The position numbers and the translations under genes were made by a program. Shown here one piece after another: positions 6,410 to 42,914 of a stretch of DNA of 64,000 nt. Numbering within the stretch: the first letter of the stretch is position 1; each line of letters starts with the position of its first letter. Source of the DNA: an uncultured virus (IMG/VR IMGVR_UViG_2630968567_000005) (taxonomy: Duplodnaviria; Heunggongvirae; Uroviricota; Caudoviricetes); the IMG/VR virus record IMGVR_UViG_2630968567_000005. One strand, written 5' to 3'. The notes under the pieces are model-generated. The model was not told where the DNA came from, made no database searches, and saw nothing but the letters and a program-made list of their open reading frames with translations.

Positions 6410-6937
6410 TTAGCTAATAGAGATGTTCCAGTCTTTGTTATTGCTGGTATCAATACCAAGTGACCCCACGTTTGACCCAACAACCATTTCACCCAACAGC
6501 AATGGAACAGGACGCCCCTGTCCGACTTTGTTTTCAGCGCTAGTGTATGAGTTGTTCGTTATCGAACCGCTTTGTGCTGATTCAGCCGAGGTCTTGGTTT
6601 TCATGTTCGAGGTCATATAGAGCGAATAAGCTACAGAGGCCACGGTAACGGCGACCATGATCCACGCTGCGGCCACAGCAGTTATTGCCCCCTCAACAAC
6701 CGGAACAAACAAGACCGTCGCGCCATCCCTTAAGTGCCGATCCATATGGAAATTAAGCGTGTCACTGGAAACGTCATTACCATCAATCCGTATTCGAATT
6801 TTTGATTTATAGAAGTCACGTTTGAATTCAGGACATTGAGCGAGAAGAAGACGCAATCCCTGCGAGGTGGTATCAACTGTTAAAGTGACCTGGCGGAAAT
6901 GTCGTCGAAGATTCCCCGCAAATCTAAATATGAGCAT
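6410..6937 (-). CDS. I: Tail assembly protein I
   Basis: Ubiquitin-like N-terminus ending 'FVPVVEGA' and 'GQGRPVPLLLGEMVVGS'. Confidence 0.9.
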   Translation of the reverse strand: MLIFRFAGNLRRHFRQVTLTVDTTSQGLRLLLAQCPEFKRDFYKSKIRIRIDGNDVSSDTLNFHMDRHLRDGATVLFVPVVEGAITAVAAAWIMVAVTVASVAYSLYMTSNMKTKTSAESAQSGSITNNSYTSAENKVGQGRPVPLLLGEMVVGSNVGSLGIDTSNNKDWNISIS

Positions 6938-33222: not shown

Positions 33223-33725
33223 TGCGCCCCCTCACGTAGTCTTGCTGCGAAATCAAGAATATTGGAAATCTCGCCTGTATCTGCCATTACACCAACGTCA
33301 AAGGCTTGTACGTGACGGTGCTGCGCAAATTTTTCAACACCACTCGCCTCTACATCATTAAGAGCCAGAATGGTTGCAGGGACACTAATTACTTCGTATA
33401 GCGCCTCAAATGCATCTTCTTCATAGTCGCCACATGAAGAGATGCCATCTACCGTATTCAGATGCCCCCTGTTGTAACCAGCGTTATATACATGGACGCA
33501 GGATTGTTGAAGTGCTGCGTTCTCGGCAACAATCACATTATATTTCCCCTGCCACTCCAAACACTCCCGCTCATAATGCTTCGCTGTGCGCCGGTTCTTA
33601 TTAGCTGAGGTCACCAGCTCCGCTATGCGATCAGCGATGCCGTTTAGCACCTCACTTTCACGTGGTTCCACTCTTTCCGCTGCTGAACGAATTGCAGCAA
33701 TCATGCCATCGGTTGAAATATTCAT
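33219..33725 (-). CDS. Hypothetical protein (Ead-like)
   Basis: 'VAENAALQ' coiled coil, 'VEASGVEKFA', 'FAARLREGA'. Confidence 0.55.
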   Translation of the reverse strand: MNISTDGMIAAIRSAAERVEPRESEVLNGIADRIAELVTSANKNRRTAKHYERECLEWQGKYNVIVAENAALQQSCVHVYNAGYNRGHLNTVDGISSCGDYEEDAFEALYEVISVPATILALNDVEASGVEKFAQHRHVQAFDVGVMADTGEISNILDFAARLREGAQ

Positions 33726-33973
33726 TTGGTCTCGCCTCTGTGGTCTCTACGGTCACGCCAGTAATTTAAGCGCTCTTTAAAAAACTCTCGGTAATGCACC
33801 GGTACCCGTTCAATCGCTTCAAGTACATGAGCGCGGTTGGTCCTGCGCTCGTACAGGTTTTTGATTAAGCCGCTGGCTCTCAAATCAAGATTTAGCTTTT
33901 CTTGGTATTCCTGAGGCCAGAGGCAAATGTTGTACGGGAGTCCGGGCGGGAGATAATCAGATTGCCCGGACAT
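33722..33973 (-). CDS. DNA polymerase III theta-like protein (HolE/Hot-like)
   Basis: 'YNI...QEYQEKLNLDLRASG...PVHYREFFKERLNYWR' resembles theta. Confidence 0.65.
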   Translation of the reverse strand: MSGQSDYLPPGLPYNICLWPQEYQEKLNLDLRASGLIKNLYERRTNRAHVLEAIERVPVHYREFFKERLNYWRDRRDHRGETK

Positions 33974-33977
33974 GGTA

Positions 33978-34358
33978 TTAACTCCCCATGCCTACAGTGC
34001 TCATCAGTTGATTTATTCGGGATGCTCGCAAGCAGTACGCCAACTCCTTATCATCAAATGGCATTCTGGCGGGTTTAGTTCGGGGTTCGCTTTTATTGCG
34101 TTTGACTTGTGTGTCAGAGAATCGGAAAAAATCCTCTGAGATACTGTTGAGGGTGTATTGAGTCTTTCGACCATTGCGGCGGGTAATGTCTGCATGAGGT
34201 GAGAGCACCATGCTTCTCACACGGATACGCAGTACGTTAATAGGCATTTCAGCATTAGGGAATTTTAAAGCTATAGCCTCGATAATCTGGCTGTAGCTCA
34301 TGCTTTGGCCCAGCATAACCTCAGCCAATTCACGGGTAGTTAGTTCACGTTTTTTCAT
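33978..34358 (-). CDS. Hypothetical protein, possible winged helix
   Basis: 126-aa ORF after dnaB. Confidence 0.55.
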   Translation of the reverse strand: MKKRELTTRELAEVMLGQSMSYSQIIEAIALKFPNAEMPINVLRIRVRSMVLSPHADITRRNGRKTQYTLNSISEDFFRFSDTQVKRNKSEPRTKPARMPFDDKELAYCLRASRINQLMSTVGMGS

Positions 34359-34402
34359 GGTCTTGCCTCTTTTGGGGTTACTTAAACGCTGGTCAGGCGC
34401 GG

Positions 34403-35764
34403 TTAAAATTTTTTTGTTGAGTAACTTTTATTGTTTGATTTTGCTTCCTGCTGCATACGGCATACTTGCTCTGCACTAGTTTGGTTAGTTGGCATGTAAT
34501 GCCCATTTTTAAATTGCTGGTACACGACACCCGGAATGCCAAATCTATCTTTAGCTAAAATCAATTCGGCGTAGTCCTTGGCTGGACTGAGTGGGTTATA
34601 AATAACATCGCGGTAGGTGAAAATTATTCGGTCAGCGTCTTGTTCAACAGAACCAGAGTCACGCAGATCGGCGGGAACGGGACGACGCATACCCGCGGGC
34701 CTTTCGTCCACCTTTCTAGATAGTTGGCTTAAGGCGATAACAGGCGTATGGATGCGTTTTGCAAGGGCTTTGAGGCCACCGGATATTTTGCCAACGGCCA
34801 GATCATGCCGCTCAGCTTTTGGTGTGGTAATTAGCCCCATGTAATCAACAAATACGCCACTCAAGTGCGGGTAACGGCGTTTATGCGTTTCAGAAATGGC
34901 GCGTATCTGATCAATGGTGAGTTCGCTGGCATCAACAATCCAAATATCCTGATTAACCAACTCGCCAAGGCTGTTAGATATGCGCGCCCAATCCTCCTCA
35001 TAAAGTACGCCAGAACGCAATTTGGATACGGGTAGTTGGGCAGATCCGGCAATGGTACGTTCGGTAATCTGCTGTGCTGCCATCTCCATAGAGAACAACA
35101 AAGCGCCACCACCATTACGGGTCATGCCGTTAATCATGCTTAACGCCAACTCTGTTTTACCCATGCCGGGGCGTCCGGCCAGTATAATTAAATCGGTGGG
35201 GTTAAAGCCTCCGGTCAACTGATCCAGCGGTTCAATGCCGGTCATGATCATGCGGGTTTCTTCTGCGCCTAAGTTCCGTTTTTCCAGCGTGTCGACATAG
35301 GTATCCATCAATTCCTTGATGTGTACCGGCATTAAGCCGCCACTTTCGCTTGTTAATTCGGTCATGGTGACCATGAATTCAGCTACAGCAAACTTGGCCT
35401 GTTCATGACTGTGAGAGGCGGCCAATTGCTGCTGCCCTTTTTGGATTGCTGCCGTCAACGCACGTACATGCCAATATTCGCGAACCAGGTCTGCATAGCC
35501 CTTGAGATTTGCAGCGCTCCAACAGCTTTTTGCTGTGCTTAAGACGTTGGCAAAATCATCACCCCCCATCGACTCGCCGACTAAGATCGGATCAATGACT
35601 GACGTCCCCAGCGCCTGACGCTTAATCTCGATATACACGCGGCGGAAGAATGCCGTATTAAAGGCGTCCTCAGGCAAAGTGGCAATAACGTCATAGGCAT
35701 CTGGTGTAGCGCCACCGAGCAGCAGGCCACCCACTACCGCTGACTCTAAATCGTATGCATTCAT
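34403..35764 (-). CDS. dnaB: Phage DnaB-like replicative helicase
   Basis: 'AGRPGMGKT', 'FSMEM', 'VDYM', 'LSQLSR', 'DLRDSGSVEQDAD'. Confidence 0.95.
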   Translation of the reverse strand: MNAYDLESAVVGGLLLGGATPDAYDVIATLPEDAFNTAFFRRVYIEIKRQALGTSVIDPILVGESMGGDDFANVLSTAKSCWSAANLKGYADLVREYWHVRALTAAIQKGQQQLAASHSHEQAKFAVAEFMVTMTELTSESGGLMPVHIKELMDTYVDTLEKRNLGAEETRMIMTGIEPLDQLTGGFNPTDLIILAGRPGMGKTELALSMINGMTRNGGGALLFSMEMAAQQITERTIAGSAQLPVSKLRSGVLYEEDWARISNSLGELVNQDIWIVDASELTIDQIRAISETHKRRYPHLSGVFVDYMGLITTPKAERHDLAVGKISGGLKALAKRIHTPVIALSQLSRKVDERPAGMRRPVPADLRDSGSVEQDADRIIFTYRDVIYNPLSPAKDYAELILAKDRFGIPGVVYQQFKNGHYMPTNQTSAEQVCRMQQEAKSNNKSYSTKKF

Positions 35765-36735
35765 AGCGCACCATCACGGGTTTTTCTTAAAACTTCCGGT
35801 TTCATCAGATAATCAAAGTTTGCCCGCCAGCCTGCCCCATCATCACCACCGAAATAAAACACGGTTGCCTGTCCGCGAAAGGCTTCGAAGTAGCTCTGGA
35901 ACGCTTCAAGGTCTTTGGTTTTGAGGTATTGGAGTAATTCGCGGATGGCGTGTTTACGGTCCTGATCGATTTCAGCCGGTGGCAAAACATCGCTGAATAC
36001 ACGGTTATACGCAGCAATGACCTCATCGCAATCAATCCGCCCGGCAGACTCAGACCATGCGCGGGCATCAGCCAGATAACCATCGAACCGGTTTACACGG
36101 CAGATATTCGCAGGTTTGGCATACTTGCCGTTGCGGGGTTTCCATGTGCTGACTACCCATAGGGCCACCAGTTGCAAATCAGCCAGCGCGTAGGCTTTGC
36201 GTGATTTCGTTGCCGTCAGCAAGGTTTCGAATGGGCTAGAATCTTCACACCGAGTGTGAGTGAGTTCGTTGTAATACGCCAAAGCCTTTTCAGCGTCAGC
36301 GAGAATATTTTCGGTTTCCCCTTGAGGGGTAAGGGGTGTATTTGGATCTATGACTGGTTCAAAAGAGTGACTGGTTCTGGGTGCAGCATTTGCACCACTA
36401 ACCGGTGCACCATTTACACCAGAGGGTGCAGGAGATTCACCATAGGGTGCAGCATTTGCACCAGCGGAATTTAAGCGCAGGTGATAAACATTTGAACGAT
36501 TCAGGCCATTATCAGATTTACGTTCTTCAATCCTAACCAGCCCACTTTTGACCAGTTCTTGAATATGATTCTGTACCGAGCGTTCGGATATTTCACACTG
36601 ATCGGCAATGTAGGGAACCGATGGCCAGCACTCGCCCTGATCGTTCGCATTATCAGCTAATTTTATCAGCACTAACTTTCGTAACGGGTTGCCGACTTTG
36701 ATATTCATGGCCCGAGCCATTAGATTCATGCTCAT
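35761..36735 (-). CDS. Replication initiator (HTH) containing the origin
   Basis: 'KLVLIKLADNANDQGECWPS' HTH; internal iterons. Confidence 0.88.
   Translation of the reverse strand: MSMNLMARAMNIKVGNPLRKLVLIKLADNANDQGECWPSVPYIADQCEISERSVQNHIQELVKSGLVRIEERKSDNGLNRSNVYHLRLNSAGANAAPYGESPAPSGVNGAPVSGANAAPRTSHSFEPVIDPNTPLTPQGETENILADAEKALAYYNELTHTRCEDSSPFETLLTATKSRKAYALADLQLVALWVVSTWKPRNGKYAKPANICRVNRFDGYLADARAWSESAGRIDCDEVIAAYNRVFSDVLPPAEIDQDRKHAIRELLQYLKTKDLEAFQSYFEAFRGQATVFYFGGDDGAGWRANFDYLMKPEVLRKTRDGAL
36380..36462. repeat. Four 17-bp iterons (phage replication origin)
   Basis: GGTGCAGCATTTGCACC x2 plus GGTGCACCATTTACACC and GGTGCAGGAGATTCACC at 36380, 36404, 36425, 36446. Confidence 0.8.
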
Positions 36736-36737
36736 AG

Positions 36738-36962
36738 TCAGATCCCTAGCGCTTCGGCTATTTGCCGACAGGCAGACTGATAATCGTCAGGCGATAGGTT
36801 CATCCCGCGCAGGTCGGCTTTCTTTTGTTCATACTGCTCCCACACGCTATAGGCGGCTACCTGACGCCCGGCAAAAATAGGGGCGATGTCAACCATGCTT
36901 GCCGGTTGGCCGTTAAGCCGGAATCCGTTGCGCCAGGTGATTTTGTCGATAGATGTAAGCAT
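36738..36962 (-). CDS. Hypothetical protein
   Basis: 74-aa ORF with AGAGG RBS. Confidence 0.65.
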   Translation of the reverse strand: MLTSIDKITWRNGFRLNGQPASMVDIAPIFAGRQVAAYSVWEQYEQKKADLRGMNLSPDDYQSACRQIAEALGI

Positions 36963-36978
36963 TGGTCTTGCCTCTGTT

Positions 36979-37443
36979 TTATACGGTGGTCAGCCGGTGG
37001 TGTTGTGGTCTGATTGCGTGAAGTGCCGCAACAGCGCCCGATATCCTTTGTGACATGTCACAGCCATCTAATAGAACCGCGCTAATTGCTGCGGCAAACT
37101 CTCGACTGGCAATCGAAACCAAATAATTCACGGTCTCGCCATTCACCCTGGCCCGCCGTTCTGCCGGGAGTGCCGCTTTAAGTACCGGTGATAATTCCAA
37201 GACCTTGCGCATTGATGCTTTTGAATCCCCGCGCAGCCAGCGAAATAACTGCTGCCGGTTGTTGTTAATAGACTTCCAATCAGCGCCGCCCTGCCCGTTT
37301 TCAATGGGAGTGAGACGAACTGAACCGGTGTTGATATTGAGCAAGAAAAACATTCTGCTGATCTCGATAGCTACATGCTCCTGCCCCCGCTCTGCCGCCC
37401 ACGCCTGAACTTCGGCTTTAAGGGCTTTAATTTCTTGTTCCAC
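36979..37443 (-). CDS. YdaT/CII-like regulator
   Basis: Follows cro; 'VQAWAAERGQEHVA', 'NNRQQLFRWL'. Confidence 0.8.
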   Translation of the reverse strand: MEQEIKALKAEVQAWAAERGQEHVAIEISRMFFLLNINTGSVRLTPIENGQGGADWKSINNNRQQLFRWLRGDSKASMRKVLELSPVLKAALPAERRARVNGETVNYLVSIASREFAAAISAVLLDGCDMSQRISGAVAALHAIRPQHHRLTTV

Positions 37444-37466
37444 GTTGCGTCTCCTGTCGCAGGAAA

Positions 37467-37510
37467 TTGATTATTGATAATCAGATTTGTGAGTGGGATT
37501 GGGTTAGGCT
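37467..37510 (+). promoter_or_regulatory. YdaT/CII-type site and pRE-like promoter
   Basis: TTGATT-N6-AATCAG followed after 20 nt by TAGGCT. Confidence 0.6.
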
Positions 37511-37689
37511 GCACTTCGATACATAGCGGGGTCATATTTCAGTTCGCCATGAGTCATGCGTTCAATCTTCATTGCCTGTTTCTCAGGGATAATTGCCCCC
37601 CAACGGCAAACTGCTGGGTGCTTTATGCCTAAGGCCGTGGCGGTATTCACTACCCCACCAAAAAACTTGACGACATCTTTCTTGTTCAT
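37504..37689 (-). CDS. cro: Cro-like repressor
   Basis: 'VVKFFGGVVNTATALGIKHPAVCRWGAIIPEKQA'. Confidence 0.9.
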   Translation of the reverse strand: MNKKDVVKFFGGVVNTATALGIKHPAVCRWGAIIPEKQAMKIERMTHGELKYDPAMYRSAA

Positions 37690-37719
37690 AGGAACTCCTT
37701 GTTTAACTCAGGATGAAAG

Positions 37720-37781
37720 GTAACAAAAGGTACATAACAATGCAAACACTTTTCACATCGCTATGGCGTAACATTGGTTAC
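37720..37781. promoter_or_regulatory. OR operators
   Basis: GTAACAAAAGGTAC (37720) and GTAACATTGGTTAC (37768); the second abuts the cI ATG. Confidence 0.65.
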
Positions 37782-38444
37782 ATGAAAAATGAAATGAATG
37801 ACCGCATCCGTCTTCGCAGACTGCAGCTAGATCTCACGCAAGTCCAATTAGCCAAAGCTATTGGGGTGAGCCGTGTATCAGTGACAAAATGGGAGTCAGG
37901 AATCACTAAACCAGATGGGGAAAATCTTCACCGGCTGGCGCAAATACTTTCATGCACGCCAGAGTGGTTACTCTATGGTACCGGAGATTTACGTCAGGTT
38001 GACGATACGAAGATTAAGCCCCTCGTCGCTGTGCCTAATGCCATACCTGTCATCTCATCCGTTCAAGCCGGTGCCTGGACAGAAACCTACTCCGCCGCCC
38101 GTATCTCTGATGTTCTTAGATGGTGCAACACCACAGTGAAGGTTTCTGAAAACGCATTTGGTTTGGATGTTCGGGGTGAGTCAATGACCAACCCCAATGG
38201 TTCCCCTTCTATCCCCGAGGGGTCTACCGTTATCGTAGAACCTAATTATGGTTCTATTGATGATTTGTACGGTAAAATAGTGGTCGCCATCATTGATGGC
38301 AGCTCCGAGGCCACCATTAAAAAGTTAGTTGTTGATGGCCCCAATAAATACCTAATGCCTTTAAATCCCAATTTCAAACCCATCGAAATAAACGGCAATT
38401 GCCGTATTCTCGGTCGCGTTGTTCAGGTTACCCAAGACCTGTAA
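37782..38444 (+). CDS. cI: CI repressor (HTH + S24 peptidase)
   Basis: HTH, 'VQAG' cleavage site, 'GESM', 'ATIKKL'; start moved to MKNEMN. Confidence 0.95.
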   Translation: MKNEMNDRIRLRRLQLDLTQVQLAKAIGVSRVSVTKWESGITKPDGENLHRLAQILSCTPEWLLYGTGDLRQVDDTKIKPLVAVPNAIPVISSVQAGAWTETYSAARISDVLRWCNTTVKVSENAFGLDVRGESMTNPNGSPSIPEGSTVIVEPNYGSIDDLYGKIVVAIIDGSSEATIKKLVVDGPNKYLMPLNPNFKPIEINGNCRILGRVVQVTQDL

Positions 38445-38449
38445 TCAAT

Positions 38450-38476
38450 AGCCCATCCCCCTGATGGGCTTTTTTA
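38450..38476 (+). terminator. Rho-independent terminator after cI
   Basis: AGCCCATC-CCCCT-GATGGGCT followed by a T-run. Confidence 0.75.
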
Positions 38477-38487
38477 TGCCCCTAAAT

Positions 38488-38539
38488 GTAACTATTGGAA
38501 CACCCCCTTATTGACACGAAAGGTAACTATAGGTACATT
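38488..38539 (+). promoter_or_regulatory. pL promoter with OL operators
   Basis: TTGACA(38511)-17-TACATT; GTAACTATTGGAAC and GTAACTATAGGTAC. Confidence 0.75.
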
Positions 38540-38684
38540 TCTCTCATCAACACGGCACAGTAGCCGATGCGAACAGGCAGGACGCCCACGAAGTAGCTGC
38601 CGGTGGCATACGAAACACCGGATGATTCGCAAGTTTAGGTTTAGTACGTTCTGGCAGCCGGGAAGACGGCAAAAGAGGGAAGTT

Positions 38685-38840
38685 ATGAAAGCAACTAAAA
38701 AGCAAGCGAGTAAATTCCAGATCCAATATCGCTACTGTGGAATGTGGGCTAACGGAAATACTTACCCAACTCGCAAAGAAGCTGATGATTACGCACGCAA
38801 TACTGGCCGTGATTATCAAGTAGTCAAAGTACGGCAATAA
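38685..38840 (+). CDS. Small hypothetical early protein (51 aa)
   Basis: GAGGGA RBS, MKATKKQASK... Confidence 0.55.
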   Translation: MKATKKQASKFQIQYRYCGMWANGNTYPTRKEADDYARNTGRDYQVVKVRQ

Positions 38841-39150
38841 CAGAATTTGGGTTGTTGCATTGGAGGAGAACCCCGCGCCAAGGCTCGGCATGATTACCAC
38901 AGTGCAGCAGCCCAAACCAATAACGTAGCCACGACGGGAAAGTGTGGTGAGGCAAGACCGAAGATCTGACCCGCTGGCCCGGCGTAATGGGCACCAAATT
39001 ACAGACGTAAAAAAACCCACCGAAGTGGGCTTCTTTACCCCGGGTCACCGACCAAAGTTAACCGGGAAGCTAACGGGGACCAACCCGTTAACAGAGGCAA
39101 GACCAACGGCTTACGCCATCAATCTTAAAATAAGTATATCAGGAGTTGCT

Positions 39151-39486
39151 ATGACAGCACTACAGATAACCACCAAGCTCTACATCCATACCAATCCATA
39201 TTCAACATCAAAAGATGATCGCTTTACCGTGTACACCTGTGACATGTCACAGGTTGAGCCAGCGCATGTTTTACTCGAAACCCGAGAAATTACGATTCCT
39301 TTTGACGAACCCGACCCTTTTGAAATCATCAGCAAGCATGTCGATTCACTCCATAGCAAAAAGGAACAGATTGCGGCTGAGTCATATCGTAAGCAGTCAC
39401 TAATTGATGATCAGATTCAGGCGTTGCTATGCATCGAGCACAGCACTCCATCGAACGTATCTGATGATACCGAAATTCCTTTTTAA
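39151..39486 (+). CDS. Hypothetical early protein
   Basis: AGGAG RBS, MTALQITT...; ends with an SSB-like acidic tail DDTEIPF. Confidence 0.7.
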   Translation: MTALQITTKLYIHTNPYSTSKDDRFTVYTCDMSQVEPAHVLLETREITIPFDEPDPFEIISKHVDSLHSKKEQIAAESYRKQSLIDDQIQALLCIEHSTPSNVSDDTEIPF

Positions 39487-39541
39487 TTAGTCATACATCA
39501 AAGACCAAGATCCGTTTAAAAACCAAAGAGGCAAGACCAAC

Positions 39542-41740
39542 ATGACTGTATTTATTTGTTTATTCGAGCCGAAAAAAGCGGCTCTCAAAAATGGGGCTAT
39601 ACCGCTTGTTATAGCTCTGGAAGCCATAAATAAGAAAATGGCATCCGCACTGGCCATCGGGAAATTATGGGAAGCCTACCCCGCTGCCGGTGATAACTTT
39701 GCTGATCCGAAAATCTGTGAGGATACTGTCGGGCAACCGCGCCCGGTTGTTGGTGAGTTCGATGAGCAGTTCGCACAGGATAATACCTTTGATGGCAAAG
39801 TATGGACGCCTAATGCTGTACCGTTGCCTGAGGATGGTAATGAAGACAACGGCGAGGTAAGTGAGGACATTACTACTACTACTCCGGTTGATTTCAACAA
39901 ACTGGGTATTGGAGCTAAAGTTGGTAGCGTAATGTTGTACGGTGCGCGTGACATTGATTCACATGAGCTATCACTTGTGTATGACTTAATTAATGATGAC
40001 GACGCTGAGCCGGAAATAAGTTCGATATACATGGCGCTCACATGTATTCCTGCAATTGGCGCGATGTATCCGCAGTCAATTAAAAATCTTATTGATGCGA
40101 TAAATAAGAAATTCCCCAAAATACCTGGATTCAGGGAAGTACGTAGCTTTGCTGAAAAATGGGTTAATGAACCCAGCAATCGTGACGAGTTAACCGGTAC
40201 TAAAAAAGTTGCCCGTATTGACACGCCGGCTCCTGATGCGCCAATCAAACGCAGCTTTGAGCACACATATAAAACGCTCGATCTCGAAGTCGCTCTCGCC
40301 TTATTGCCTGCTGATTTTAACTGCTGGGATGTCATGTCGGCAGAGATGAAGCAAGCAAAAGAGCTGATGGATAACAATGATGATGCCTGGCGTAAATGGT
40401 CAACCGATTTTCGCGTTCGCAACAATGTGTTATCTATTCCATGTGAAAGCATCTTTGAAGTGATCCGCGCGGGTAAAAAGCAACCTATCTTCCTGACCGA
40501 TGCCTCAGCACGAAAGGAATTTATCACTCAGTGTTTAGCCGTTAAAAACCCACAACCCGCAGTAACCAATCTGGGTGATGGCAAGTTCTCTATTGATGGT
40601 CTAGCCGGTGGTGAACCGCAACCAGCGGCAAACAATGAAACAAAACTGGCGCTGGTTGCCAATTCTGAGCCAGAAACTGAAACAAAACCGCCAATTGTTG
40701 AAACAGAACAGGAAAACCCTGAACTGGAACCTATCACTGATAACGCAGCTCAACAGGCTAAAGAGACGTTGGATCAGTTGGGTTACAGCGTTTATGCCTC
40801 AGTTGAGGAGAAGCCGACAGAGGTTATTGAAGAGGCGCAGCAAAGCGCTATTCCTACTGTAGATGTTACTGCTGATGAATTTCAGCAGCGAGCCGTCATC
40901 ATTGAAGAGGATATATCTTCACAGCCACAAGATGTGCAGGACAACATGAATCTGTGGCGCTCGGTGCAAAGAACCGATGAACGCTTTACTAAAGCATTCT
41001 CAAATAACGGTGGTGGCACGTCGATTAACGGCACCTATATGGTTATGCAAGCAACAAAATTGCTTGGGCCACAAGGTATCAACTGGCGGGTGGAGATTTT
41101 AGAAGAACGCTTTGATAACGGTGCACCGATCATGCGGTCAGTCAAAGGTGCTGATGGAAATTATATAAAAGAAGTCATACCCAACGGATCTGGCGGCTAT
41201 CTAACTGAGATCAATCATGTCATTAAAATACGCTTAATCTACACCCTGCGTGGTGAGCGTGGCGAAATCCCTGCATATGGTTGCACCCCATATATCTACA
41301 ACACCAAAAACGGTCTCACCTGTGATAGTGAAGTCACCAAAAAATCACTAACGGATGCGACTAAAAAGGCACTGTCACAACTTGGTTTCTCTGCTGATGT
41401 ATTCCTCGGTCTTTTTGATGATCTCGGATACCGCACTGATAACGCCGCTGAGTTTGCTATCAAGAACGCAAGTGAGAAAGCCGGTGACTCAGTTCGTCTG
41501 CGCAAAGAGCTGGATGAGAAGTTAACCAAAGTAGGCAATACCATTACGAGCGCCGTCACCACCAACGAAGTGAACAAGGTTTACAGCACCATTGCGCGTG
41601 AAGTTGATGTACACCGCAAAGATGCAGAAGCCAAAGCCGATCACGAACACGCCAATTACCTCAAAACCCGCCTGCTGGCGTTACACCGCTTAACTGAAAA
41701 ACGGGTTGCTGAACTTACCGCACAGGAGCCGACATTATGA
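39542..41740 (+). CDS. RecE-N-terminal-like region fused to a Rad52/Sak-like annealing domain
   Basis: 'TYKTLDLEVALAL' RecE-like segment; C-terminal 'TKLLGPQGINW...KKSLTDATKKALSQLGFSADVFLG'. Confidence 0.7.
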   Translation: MTVFICLFEPKKAALKNGAIPLVIALEAINKKMASALAIGKLWEAYPAAGDNFADPKICEDTVGQPRPVVGEFDEQFAQDNTFDGKVWTPNAVPLPEDGNEDNGEVSEDITTTTPVDFNKLGIGAKVGSVMLYGARDIDSHELSLVYDLINDDDAEPEISSIYMALTCIPAIGAMYPQSIKNLIDAINKKFPKIPGFREVRSFAEKWVNEPSNRDELTGTKKVARIDTPAPDAPIKRSFEHTYKTLDLEVALALLPADFNCWDVMSAEMKQAKELMDNNDDAWRKWSTDFRVRNNVLSIPCESIFEVIRAGKKQPIFLTDASARKEFITQCLAVKNPQPAVTNLGDGKFSIDGLAGGEPQPAANNETKLALVANSEPETETKPPIVETEQENPELEPITDNAAQQAKETLDQLGYSVYASVEEKPTEVIEEAQQSAIPTVDVTADEFQQRAVIIEEDISSQPQDVQDNMNLWRSVQRTDERFTKAFSNNGGGTSINGTYMVMQATKLLGPQGINWRVEILEERFDNGAPIMRSVKGADGNYIKEVIPNGSGGYLTEINHVIKIRLIYTLRGERGEIPAYGCTPYIYNTKNGLTCDSEVTKKSLTDATKKALSQLGFSADVFLGLFDDLGYRTDNAAEFAIKNASEKAGDSVRLRKELDEKLTKVGNTITSAVTTNEVNKVYSTIAREVDVHRKDAEAKADHEHANYLKTRLLALHRLTEKRVAELTAQEPTL

Positions 41741-42237
41741 GCAATACAGCAATCGCATTAGCCGCAGACCTTTTCAAACTGCAACAGTTGGTTGAGTCCT
41801 CAGAGGAACTCACGCCAGAAATGATCGCCGATACGCTTGAGGGGTTAGAGGGTGCCCTGGGGGATAAGCTGGATGCAACCTACGTCTTTGTTCGCAATCT
41901 TGAGGGGCAAGCAAAGACCTGTGATGAGGAAGCTAAACGTCTGGCTGAGCGGAAAAGGTCATTCGAGAATCGGGCCAAATCGATCAAACAGTACGTCCTT
42001 AACTGCTTATTGGCCGCAGATATGAACACACTTAAAACGCCGTATAACACATTCACCGCACGCAAAGGTGTGGCCAGTGTGGTGATCGACAATGAAGACT
42101 TATTGTCCAGTGAATTGGTGACAGTGCAAACCACCGTAGCGCCCGATAAAAAAGCCATTAAGGAAGCCATAGAGAATGGTGTTGATGTTAAAGGTGCGCA
42201 TATCGAGATCGGTAGCCGTAGCCTGCAGGTTCGCTAA
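41737..42237 (+). CDS. Siphovirus Gp157-like protein
   Basis: 'DTLEGLEG..DK', 'EAKRLAERK', 'PDKKAIKEAIENG..V.GA'. Confidence 0.85.
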   Translation: MSNTAIALAADLFKLQQLVESSEELTPEMIADTLEGLEGALGDKLDATYVFVRNLEGQAKTCDEEAKRLAERKRSFENRAKSIKQYVLNCLLAADMNTLKTPYNTFTARKGVASVVIDNEDLLSSELVTVQTTVAPDKKAIKEAIENGVDVKGAHIEIGSRSLQVR

Positions 42238-42282
42238 TTTCATCCCGCCCCAAACCAACGGGGCATTACTGAGGCAACACCC

Positions 42283-42465
42283 ATGCTAAAGCGTACTCAC
42301 AAACGCGGTGAAAAGTCCTATATCACACTCCCCGATGGACGAACAGGCACCATCCACACTGATCGCCGTTGTGATGTTCACTACGATTTTCCGGTAGATG
42401 TTCGAATTAGCAGCACCCCACCGCAGAAAGCACCCGAAAAATTGATTTTGCATAATCAGAAATAA
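42283..42465 (+). CDS. Small protein with a CsrA-like sequence pattern
   Basis: ML..T.K.GE...I...G...I......P.DV.I; GAGG RBS. Confidence 0.55.
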   Translation: MLKRTHKRGEKSYITLPDGRTGTIHTDRRCDVHYDFPVDVRISSTPPQKAPEKLILHNQK

Positions 42466-42485
42466 TCAACCTGCCCCGCTAGCAT
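42442..42485 (+). promoter_or_regulatory. YdaT/CII-type site and pI-like promoter
   Basis: TTGATT-N6-AATCAG followed after 20 nt by TAGCAT; same geometry as 37467. Confidence 0.6.
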
Positions 42486-42514
42486 GGTGGAAATCCAACA
42501 CCAGGGAAACCACC

Positions 42515-42721
42515 ATGCAGCCATGGCAACCGGGCAAACGCCTATTAACCGACTTAGATATTAAGATCGGCAAATTATCAGCCAGTGTACGGAAACAACA
42601 ACTCACCGACCACGATATACAGCGGGCCTGTTCTGCGACCGACAGAGCAATAACCCAAATGATACAGGGGCAAGACCATGAAAAACGACCACGACATAAT
42701 CACCAAAGAGGAGATGATTGA
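42515..42721 (+). CDS. Hypothetical protein
   Basis: 68-aa ORF with AGGGA RBS. Confidence 0.5.
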   Translation: MQPWQPGKRLLTDLDIKIGKLSASVRKQQLTDHDIQRACSATDRAITQMIQGQDHEKRPRHNHQRGDD

Positions 42722-42914
42722 GTTGACCGGTCATCACTACAAAACCAAACAATGTGACTCTTTACGCCGCTCGGGGATCTTTTTTATCCGACGCCCAGAC
42801 GGACACCCGAAAACCACTTGGGGCCATTTTTTGAATCCAATCAGTTTACGCGGTAAGCCGCTAGAGCCAGAAAAAGAAGAACCCAATTTCGAGGCCATGA
42901 ACAGTGGCCGGTAA
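42678..42914 (+). CDS. Excisionase-like protein (DUF4224-type)
   Basis: 'ELTGH...KQC..L...GI.F..R.DGHP', 'EPNFEAM'; overlaps int. Confidence 0.8.
   Translation: MKNDHDIITKEEMIELTGHHYKTKQCDSLRRSGIFFIRRPDGHPKTTWGHFLNPISLRGKPLEPEKEEPNFEAMNSGR

Follow-up and report, generated by a model that had tools for sequence, protein, structure and literature searches.

Five early genes in two divergent operons of an uncultured temperate phage display the same short sequence directly before their start codons, which raises the question of what reads it. The sequence lies in a 64-kb stretch of DNA (hereafter the window) from IMG/VR record IMGVR_UViG_2630968567_000005, a single virus contig of 77 kb; positions 33-44 kb of the window hold the early genes of a temperate, lambdoid-type phage. 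An earlier reading, made without database searches (hereafter the sequence-only reading), had described this motif at the ribosome-binding sites (RBSs) of five genes together with two copies in the pL leader, and had proposed that a trans-acting factor, either a protein or a small RNA (sRNA), co-regulates the genes at the level of translation. Our comparison with related phages supported this proposal, and a candidate reader is found in the same genome. It is a predicted antisense sRNA of about 119 nt, encoded opposite the pL leader, which would pair with the motif-bearing RBSs and repress their translation. On the sequence evidence presented below, we put the probability of this reading at about 0.58.

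A motif at the starts of early genes

When searched with at most one mismatch, AGRGGCRAGACC gave seven matches in the window against 0.73 expected, and none of 100 shuffles reached seven. The matches start at 33728, 34359 and 36964 on the minus strand and at 38948, 39093, 39527 and 42666 on the plus strand; the coordinates given in the sequence-only reading for five gene starts and two leader copies were correct. All seven lie in the early region, on the strand of their own operon (pR leftward, pL rightward), so that every copy is indeed on the transcribed strand, as had been claimed. Five copies end 0-3 nt 5' of an ATG (open reading frames, ORFs, starting at 33725, 34358, 36962, 39542 and 42678), and the two others, at 38948 and 39093, belong to the pL leader and have no ORF behind them. 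The motif, AGAGGCAAGACC(AA), holds GAGG at the correct Shine-Dalgarno (SD) spacing. A stricter regular expression (regex), run on the whole 77-kb contig, retrieved six copies and none beyond 33.7-42.7 kb; it missed copy 38948 because of a T at the first position. A sixth start-adjacent copy is degenerate, with core GGCAACACC at 42273-42281, and stands 5' of the ORF starting at 42283. The copies and their genes are as follows (aa, amino acids).

36963..36976, minus strand: motif copy 5' of the 74-aa gene (ORF 36962-36738, phrog_2465)
34359..34370, minus strand: motif copy 5' of the 126-aa gene (ORF 34358-33978, phrog_4183)
33726..33740, minus strand: motif copy with core GGCGAGACC, 5' of the 168-aa gene (ORF 33725-33219, phrog_492)
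39527..39541, plus strand: motif copy 5' of the 732-aa exonuclease gene (ORF 39542-41740, phrog_2489)
42665..42677, plus strand: motif copy CAGGGGCAAGACC, 5' of the excisionase gene (ORF 42678-42914, DUF4224, phrog_1266)
42270..42282, plus strand: degenerate copy TGAGGCAACACCC, 5' of the 60-aa gene (ORF 42283-42465, phrog_2482)
38948..38959, plus strand: leader copy 1, TGAGGCAAGACC, on the 5' side of a bidirectional terminator in the pL leader and outside the candidate sRNA gene
39093..39104, plus strand: leader copy 2, whose opposite strand encodes the seed of the candidate sRNA

The motif-bearing genes head close or overlapping runs. The 74-aa gene is followed after a 2-nt gap by the O-like initiator gene and then, with a 4-nt overlap, by that of the DnaB helicase, and the 126-aa gene is separated by 4 nt from a theta-subunit homologue. 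Likewise, the exonuclease and Gam-like/Gp157 genes overlap at stop and start, and the excisionase gene overlaps the start of the integrase gene. The 168-aa gene is an exception in that it displays its own copy, located within the 3' end of the theta-like gene, despite a start that overlaps the theta stop. In literature text, the letters of the motif were encountered only in unrelated primer sequences among the matches listed (10 of 228).

Matched motif variants in related phages

A motif scan of related prophages had been suggested as a check of the sequence-only reading. Performed on IMG/VR as a pattern scan, it uncovered many prophage contigs with 3-6 motif copies in the same divergent layout. 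In these relatives, the motif preceded 23 protein clusters, ten of them with at least two members, and at least 10 non-homologous early-gene families, and it was exact while the upstream flanks had diverged. A similar scan of species genomes gave nearly exclusively single chance matches among the 80 listed; a Rouxiella silvae contig with 4-5 copies, Thiopseudomonas with 2 and Yersinia similis with 1 were also among them.

The cultured Pectobacterium phage ZF40 displayed the same early gene order, with the motif CGAGGCAAGACC on the same genes. Its copies precede gp13, gp16, gp18, gp07, gp05 and gp03, two more occupy the leader, and all true copies are confined to 1.8-10.9 kb of the 48-kb genome. 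The terms 'ribosom', 'Shine' and 'motif' have 0 occurrences in the ZF40 genome paper (PMC3391216). Orthologues of the 60-aa gene, in the relatives as in ZF40 (gp05), carry a full motif copy. The ORF at 42283-42465, which the sequence-only reading had put forward as a possible regulator, belongs instead to a family of motif-bearing targets.

A set of 80 loci was fetched through homology of the neighbouring Gam-like/Gp157 gene and was consequently not selected on the motif. Some of these loci were devoid of the core GGCAAGACC and displayed GGAAAGACC or GGCAAAACC instead on the same genes. Leader copies were identified by regexes, and 74 of the 80 leaders were found. The distribution of start-adjacent sites according to the core of the leader was as follows.

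Leader core GGCAAGACC (type I), 47 loci: start-adjacent sites of type I/II/III, 194/0/4
Leader core GGAAAGACC (type II), 23 loci: start-adjacent sites of type I/II/III, 0/91/0
Leader core GGCAAAACC (type III), 4 loci: start-adjacent sites of type I/II/III, 0/0/20

The core of the own leader copy was thus matched at 305 of the 309 start-adjacent sites of these 74 loci. A fourth motif type, GGAGCATAA(A)CC, was seen by eye in locus L327, where it stands before three genes and at both leader positions, and a variant, GAGGAATAACC, before a fourth gene. Among the regex misses, L325 and L353 displayed an antisense-oriented terminator together with matching start-adjacent sites (in L353, the leader copy is at 6727), and in L302 and L361 the DNA upstream of the match was too short to cover the leader. 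Locus L313 had no leader and two start-adjacent copies only. Leader copy 1 has a matching-type counterpart at the same position in relatives of all four types.

The same relationship appeared when the 11-mer of each leader that recurs most at start codons was determined. In every non-redundant locus it was the leader's own motif copy, found at 2-8 start sites (mostly 4-8), against an average of about 0.9 for random segments. In most loci this best word was the copy just after hairpin 1, i.e. leader copy 2; in L359 and L374, where the regex for hairpin 2 anchored upstream, it was leader copy 1. Parallel change at 6-8 dispersed sites and in the leader argues for a phage-encoded reader rather than for an element directed at the host ribosome. 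Pairing with 16S rRNA beyond the SD was dropped as an explanation, as the lineage-specific variants argue against a reader on the host side.

It may be asked whether any trans-acting factor is required at all. The motif might be a favoured cis-acting RBS cassette, composed of an SD and an A/C-rich unstructured spacer. Recombination or gene conversion between copies would keep it uniform within a phage, the leader copies arising as side products. A/C-rich spacers generally favour initiation, GAGG stands at the right spacing, and variation is free just outside the 9-nt core. Yet, a concerted change by lineage, as was observed at nearly all sites, would not be expected of an element read by host ribosomes. 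Moreover, the gene that follows the leader (phrog_2479, without known function, for which a protein cluster search returned only viral clusters without name) uses an ordinary AGGAG site, the ORF-less leader copies are conserved in all four types, and the cassette would require that conversion over 9-17 nt be both frequent and complete at 6-8 scattered sites. We consider this explanation quite unlikely.

The sequence-only reading had also offered an alternative of its own, in which the motif is a gene-boundary sequence promoting modular recombination between related phages. The exact motif below completely different upstream flanks would agree with it, and so would the mosaicism of the early regions, e.g. 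in L300, which has the left arm of the window without its right arm. However, the same genes in the same order carry the motif in all types, so that the copies occupy orthologous positions and not swap junctions. Identical direct repeats at every boundary of one operon would furthermore favour deletions, and the constant spacing to the ATG, the gene-less leader copies, the upstream hairpins and the complementary structured RNA (see below for both) would stay unexplained. This alternative is disfavoured, and we give it hardly any credence.

GACCA words and hairpins upstream of the motif

Additional GACC(A) words had been noted upstream of most copies in the window. They were found again at their positions, and in the relatives such words are enriched about tenfold in a strand-specific manner. 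GACCA was encountered 37 times, against 6 for GGTC, in 73 non-redundant 58-nt contexts upstream of start-adjacent copies, while 50 contexts of chance single-copy matches in unrelated genomes contained 1 GACCA. In 119 of 418 unique target contexts, a word of this type is exposed in a CYRACCA or GACCAA loop on top of a small hairpin. The distinct hairpins number 40; their 4-bp stems come in 16 versions and, read on the mRNA strand, include 14 G-U cells. Three hairpins belong to the window.

36983..36998, minus strand: hairpin with loop CUGACCA, upstream of the 74-aa gene; orthologous hairpins with other stems in relatives
34386..34400, minus strand: hairpin GCGC[CUGACCA]GCGU, upstream of the 126-aa gene; G-U pair on the sense RNA
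about 42247-42265, plus strand: hairpin with loop AAACCAA, upstream of the degenerate copy of the 60-aa gene

The hairpin at 34386..34400 was kept, with covarying stems, in types I-III.

These hairpins bear on an explanation at the DNA level. In Cluster A mycobacteriophages, sites known as stoperators have been described (PMC3203893), and the motif could be a comparable site at which a phage DNA-binding protein blocks elongation along the early operons in the lysogen. Its asymmetry, its single orientation relative to transcription, its location in short intergenic spaces and its restriction to early operons would fit such a role. Its position, in contrast, is locked at 0-3 nt from the start codon and includes the SD, and the upstream elements are RNA hairpins whose stems covary and contain G-U cells on the mRNA strand. 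The motif is also unlike the pL/pR operator words and uncoupled from the operator type, since 11 of the 47 type I loci displayed the operator words of the window and 36 did not. A stoperator-like function therefore appears very unlikely.

A candidate antisense RNA opposite the pL leader

The minus strand facing leader copy 2 displayed the following predicted elements.

39126 to 39008, minus strand: predicted antisense sRNA of about 119 nt (both ends predicted)
39141 to 39133, minus strand: extended -10 element TGATATACT, with a predicted start near 39126

In the minimum free energy (MFE) fold, the predicted sRNA is composed, in this order, of a 5' stem-loop, a single-stranded GCCUCU linker, two further stem-loops (SL1 and SL2) and a Rho-independent terminator with U7. 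The 5' part contains the anti-motif GGUCUUGCCUCU, which is the exact complement of the motif including its (AA). The UUGGUC part of the anti-motif is included in the 12-bp 5' stem-loop, and the linker (anti-SD) is the exact complement of AGAGGC in the motif. UUGGUC is displayed again by both the SL1 loop and the SL2 apical loop. In the antisense direction the terminator has seven U, whereas the tract is weaker and interrupted in the sense direction. The sequence-only reading had placed both leader copies in non-coding DNA. It remains true that neither precedes an ORF, but copy 2 is the template of the candidate sRNA seed.

Conservation was examined in an alignment of 22 non-redundant leaders of relatives taken in antisense orientation (alignment A1). 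The columns T, A,., A,., T of the -10 hexamer were invariant in 22 of 22 leaders (hexamers TAAAAT, TATATT, TATAAT and TATACT), the hexamer was often preceded by TGn, and the anti-motif GGTCTTnCCT followed about 30 nt downstream. The structure formed by the 5' stem-loop, SL1, the SL2 apical stem and the terminator was paired in 94.9% of 626 cells, with compensatory changes in 17 of 29 pairs; slid controls reached 30-56%. With column-preserving shuffles, the observed values were attained in 0 of 500 trials on four of five measures and in 1 of 500 on the remaining one, the pairs changed on both sides. A clear strand preference was also observed. Read as antisense RNA, the structure contained 133 G-U cells against 1 A-C, whereas only 73.8% of the cells were paired in the sense reading. 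The consensus energy was -38.8 kcal/mol for antisense against -13.1 kcal/mol for sense, and the antisense MFE was the lower one in 22 of 22 leaders. A lambda N/nut arrangement is not what these stem-loops represent, as SL1 and SL2, which stand beside copy 2, show selection for their antisense form; in the general annotation no ORF for an arginine-rich, N-like protein was seen, although no systematic search for one was made.

The Rfam family isrB (RF01386) matched the minus strand at 39096-39010 with 35.0 bits, which equals its gathering score (E value 0.00028 in a 1.2-kb search), and no other Rfam family reached its gathering score in the region. Among the relatives, L303 also gave 35.0 bits, and the type II locus L329 gave 32.4 bits on the same strand, below the threshold. 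L319, L360 and L327 had no isrB match at E values up to 0.1, nor did ZF40 at the gathering score. Complete genomes of E. coli contained no match to the sRNA region. None of the sequencing runs on record as RNA contained the phage. When RNA runs under the same species label (three raw runs, plus a contig run) were aligned, 4, 0 and 1 reads matched, each of them within the unrelated conserved element at 38573-38630; the phage is thus absent from those runs, which do not bear on its expression.

A GATC (Dam) site was nearly invariant at alignment columns 35-38, a few bases after the predicted sRNA start and at the base of the 5' stem; the window reads GATT there (39124-39121, minus strand). Methylation control of the candidate sRNA promoter is conceivable.

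Pairing with the targets and proposed mechanism

Complementarity between the sRNA and the RBSs extends over 17 nt for the gene starting at 36962, 15 nt for 39542 and 13 nt for 34358 and, with one G-U pair, over 17 nt for 33725 and 14 nt for 42678. In the 33725 gene, an A-to-G difference from the leader copy still pairs as G-U. Scoring of the RNAduplex type was too noisy for target ranking, due to long interior loops, and net cofold energies were used instead. Among 100 ORF starts, with a median net gain of -4.25 kcal/mol, the 74-aa gene ranked first (-30.2 kcal/mol), the exonuclease gene second (-18.4), the 168-aa gene third (-17.6), the excisionase gene fourth (-16.2) and the 126-aa gene eighth (-12.1), a ranking largely due to the complementarity itself. 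The UGGUCGG contained in the SL2 loop is fully complementary to the CYGACCA loops of the target hairpins (with a wobble if Y is U), which makes a loop-loop contact possible as well.

We propose that the motif is the common address of a small post-transcriptional regulon. The sRNA would be transcribed opposite the pL leader from the extended -10 promoter, would end at the strong terminator, and would be made in the lysogen while pL is off. Its two UUGGUC loops are complementary to GACCA(A), both within the motif and in the hairpin loops upstream of several targets, and pairing would mask the SD and the spacer of the first gene of each run (74aa-O-DnaB, 126aa-theta, the 168-aa gene, exonuclease-Gam and Xis-Int). 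Replication, recombination and excision would thereby all be shut off at translation initiation; since the motif genes head close or overlapping runs, a few blocked sites could silence most early functions. After induction, convergent transcription from pL and the complementary leader RNA may override the repression. Leader copies 1 and 2 could then behave as decoys, and copy 1 would probably serve the pL transcript as an additional target site or decoy.

Evidence for and against the sRNA

The motif, its placement and matched variants, the antisense-strand structure, the -10 box and the terminator are results of direct computation. The support is computational throughout, and we infer the expression of the sRNA, its pairing in vivo, the direction of its effect and its timing. 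This weighs against the sRNA reading, as do several particular observations. No good -35 box was found, and a two-hexamer promoter scan did not retrieve the site. The isrB match is borderline, exactly at threshold. Salmonella IsrB starts at SL1, without the 5' stem-loop or the anti-motif seed, and Gifsy-2, when checked for a matching regulon, displayed no GACCA-type RBS motif. Part of the seed (UUGGUC) is predicted inside the 5' stem. A G/U-rich antisense strand favours G-U pairs by itself, an effect that column-preserving shuffles control only partly. Because the 80 loci are related, they amount to only four independent lineage types. Finally, single changes relative to the own leader, counted at 205 unique sites, were wobble-compatible in 15 cases and incompatible in 14, which does not favour RNA pairing. 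This tally was the stricter one, the version allowing 2 mismatches having been swamped by chance sites (54 'families').

The last point leads to the other half of the original proposal. A phage RNA-binding protein could read the sense motif as a two-site, CsrA-like target, with contacts to the GACCA hairpin loop and to the single-stranded SD-GGCAAGACC. The leader copies would be autoregulatory or decoy sites, and the antisense RNA would be unrelated and cis-acting only. The layout of the targets, with one word in a loop and a second one at the SD, does resemble two-site protein recognition, and the sense leader displays the same order of elements. The matching between leader and RBS variants is equally expected from a protein that binds all sense copies and whose specificity co-evolves with its sites. 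Yet, no candidate protein emerged. The phrog_2479 gene is absent from the type IV locus L327, where the system is kept, and the small ORF 38685-38840 has no family and is replaced by a different gene at that place in ZF40. Four specificities, one of them differing at several positions, would imply repeated re-tuning of a protein, while an RNA needs point changes; and the leader hairpins were selected on the antisense and not on the sense strand, as the G-U and A-C counts indicate. A protein reader is thus unlikely in our view, and the antisense sRNA is retained as the preferred explanation.

Early region and other leader elements

The genes surrounding the motif copies are as follows.

37689-37504, minus strand: Cro-like gene
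37713-38444, plus strand: S24 repressor gene
Leftward operon: CII/YdaT-like gene, 74-aa gene, O-like initiator, DnaB, 126-aa gene, theta-subunit homologue, 168-aa gene and more
Rightward pL operon: 111-aa gene, 732-aa exonuclease, Gam-like/Gp157, 60-aa gene, 68-aa gene, excisionase and integrase

The gene in the CII position (36979-37443, minus strand) belongs to the YdaT family (PF06254, 1.9e-26), and the theta homologue (33722-33973, minus strand) matched PF06440 (4.9e-10); ZF40 has two theta homologues. Locus L300 combines the left arm of the window and a 100% identical Gam-like gene with a different layout of the right operon and absence of the operator words of the window. It represents a mosaic exchange of the immunity region in which the type I motif was retained.

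Just downstream of pL, positions 38569-38632 (plus strand) carry a 62-64-nt element that is 85-95% identical to intergenic DNA of many temperate phages, including the otherwise unrelated ST64B, SfII, mEp460, YeP1-3 and Citrobacter phiNP. A close relative is devoid of exactly this stretch and has three other letters instead (joint 38568/38632). The element was covered by four and one RNA reads from the runs of another organism and had no Rfam match. It may act within the leader RNA, for example as a signal for antitermination.

The pL leaders of relatives also displayed a sense-strand hairpin with an invariant GAAAGA loop and covarying 4-5-bp stems, always preceded by CUGACA. It adjoins leader copy 1 (L360:7472, L333:7034, L319:6103, L327:6550 and, on the minus strand, ZF40 5976) and was observed in pL leaders only, not in pR operons. 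In the window, TCTGAC is kept and a different hairpin follows copy 1. In type II phages, the GAAAGA loop and its closing pairs spell the type II motif core.

Two of the prophages end beside the host SraC/RyeA-SdsR/RyeB sRNA locus (L327:12163-12310, 140 bits, and L329:12408-12555, 100 bits), which suggests that this locus is their integration site.

Possible biological meaning

The seed and its RBSs may constitute a second, RNA-based immunity with at least four interchangeable specificities, in which the sRNA of a resident prophage silences the replication, recombination and excision genes of resident or incoming phages of the same label. We put this forward as a tentative and rather doubtful extension of the regulon. 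If true, a lineage would evade the silencing through a joint change of label in the sRNA and in each of its 6-8 RBSs, the orphan Salmonella sRNA family IsrB would gain an ancestral function, and a general candidate reader would be available for the unexplained start-associated sequences of phages. Such start-linked repeats have been in print since 2011 without a known reader (PMC3203893). Here, a repeat and its candidate reader occur in one genome, and four lineages offer natural 'compensatory' variants of seed and target, which render the question directly testable. If the sRNA acts as proposed, a temperate phage puts replication, recombination and excision under one sRNA, on top of its protein repressor, with switchable RNA specificities analogous to immunity groups, and the IsrB family gains a function.

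Comparison with known systems

The closest likeness in placement was found with the Start-Associated Sequences (SAS) and extended SAS (ESAS) of Cluster K mycobacteriophages, which are linked to start codons and for which Pope et al. (2011) named no reader, leaving open a phage RNA or protein (PMC3203893). Like the motif, SAS is an asymmetric repeat of 12-13 nt with an SD core, located a few bases before the ATG in one orientation. Both mark a subset of non-structural genes from unrelated families, are absent from the host, and have an extra upstream element at about half of the sites (for SAS, PMC3203893). The two differ in sequence and in host phylum, the consensus being 5'-GGGATAGGAGCCC for SAS and AGAGGCAAGACC here, i.e. 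more than 2 deviations. The ESAS repeats were stated not to support RNA pairing (PMC3203893), whereas the hairpins described here covary and have a conserved loop. In addition, the phage genome itself contains a candidate gene for a structured RNA complementary to the motif, and the lineage variants of motif and RNA match. The motif of the window is analogous to SAS in placement, not homologous.

The c4 RNA of phages P1 and P7 derives by processing from the transcript that also carries its target, while the candidate described here is encoded on the other strand and has a -10 box and a terminator of its own. In both cases a small phage RNA pairs, or would pair, around an RBS; c4 blocks translation of a lytic-pathway gene, and sequence differences between the related phages create separate specificities, i.e. 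heteroimmunity (PMC12197685). Unlike c4, which has one target mRNA (ant), the candidate would address 5-8 dispersed RBSs in two divergent operons. In the accessible text of the 2025 review on phage sRNAs (PMC12197685), IsrB has 0 occurrences and no sRNA regulon extending over multiple phage RBSs is described.

Salmonella IsrB-1 and IsrB-2 (88 and 94 nt) were detected by northern blot and primer extension and are oriented opposite to both flanking genes (PMC2330248). The IsrB of Gifsy-2, which matched with 99.3 bits, has the same genomic place and orientation as the candidate, opposite the pL operon and shortly before the exonuclease VIII gene, and an SL2 with a conserved loop and a terminator are common to IsrB and the candidate. 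The predicted RNA (about 119 nt) is longer than IsrB because of the conserved -10 box located about 45 nt upstream of SL1. Hfq enrichment of IsrB was 2-fold only, with 2 against 4 reads (PMC2515195), and the available parts of both reports give no function for it (PMC2330248, PMC2515195).

In the satellite phage P4, the CI RNA, a leader RNA of the early operon, pairs with short repeats in its own early transcripts and keeps the replication genes silent in the lysogen (PMC4825925). It acts through premature termination and is processed from the sense transcript (PMC4825925), whereas the candidate is encoded antisense and its targets are RBSs. Leader copy 1 is closely followed by a terminator and might, by analogy, operate as in P4. 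Compared with c4 and the P4 CI RNA, the system described here is set apart by its antisense encoding, its own promoter and its many dispersed RBSs in two operons.

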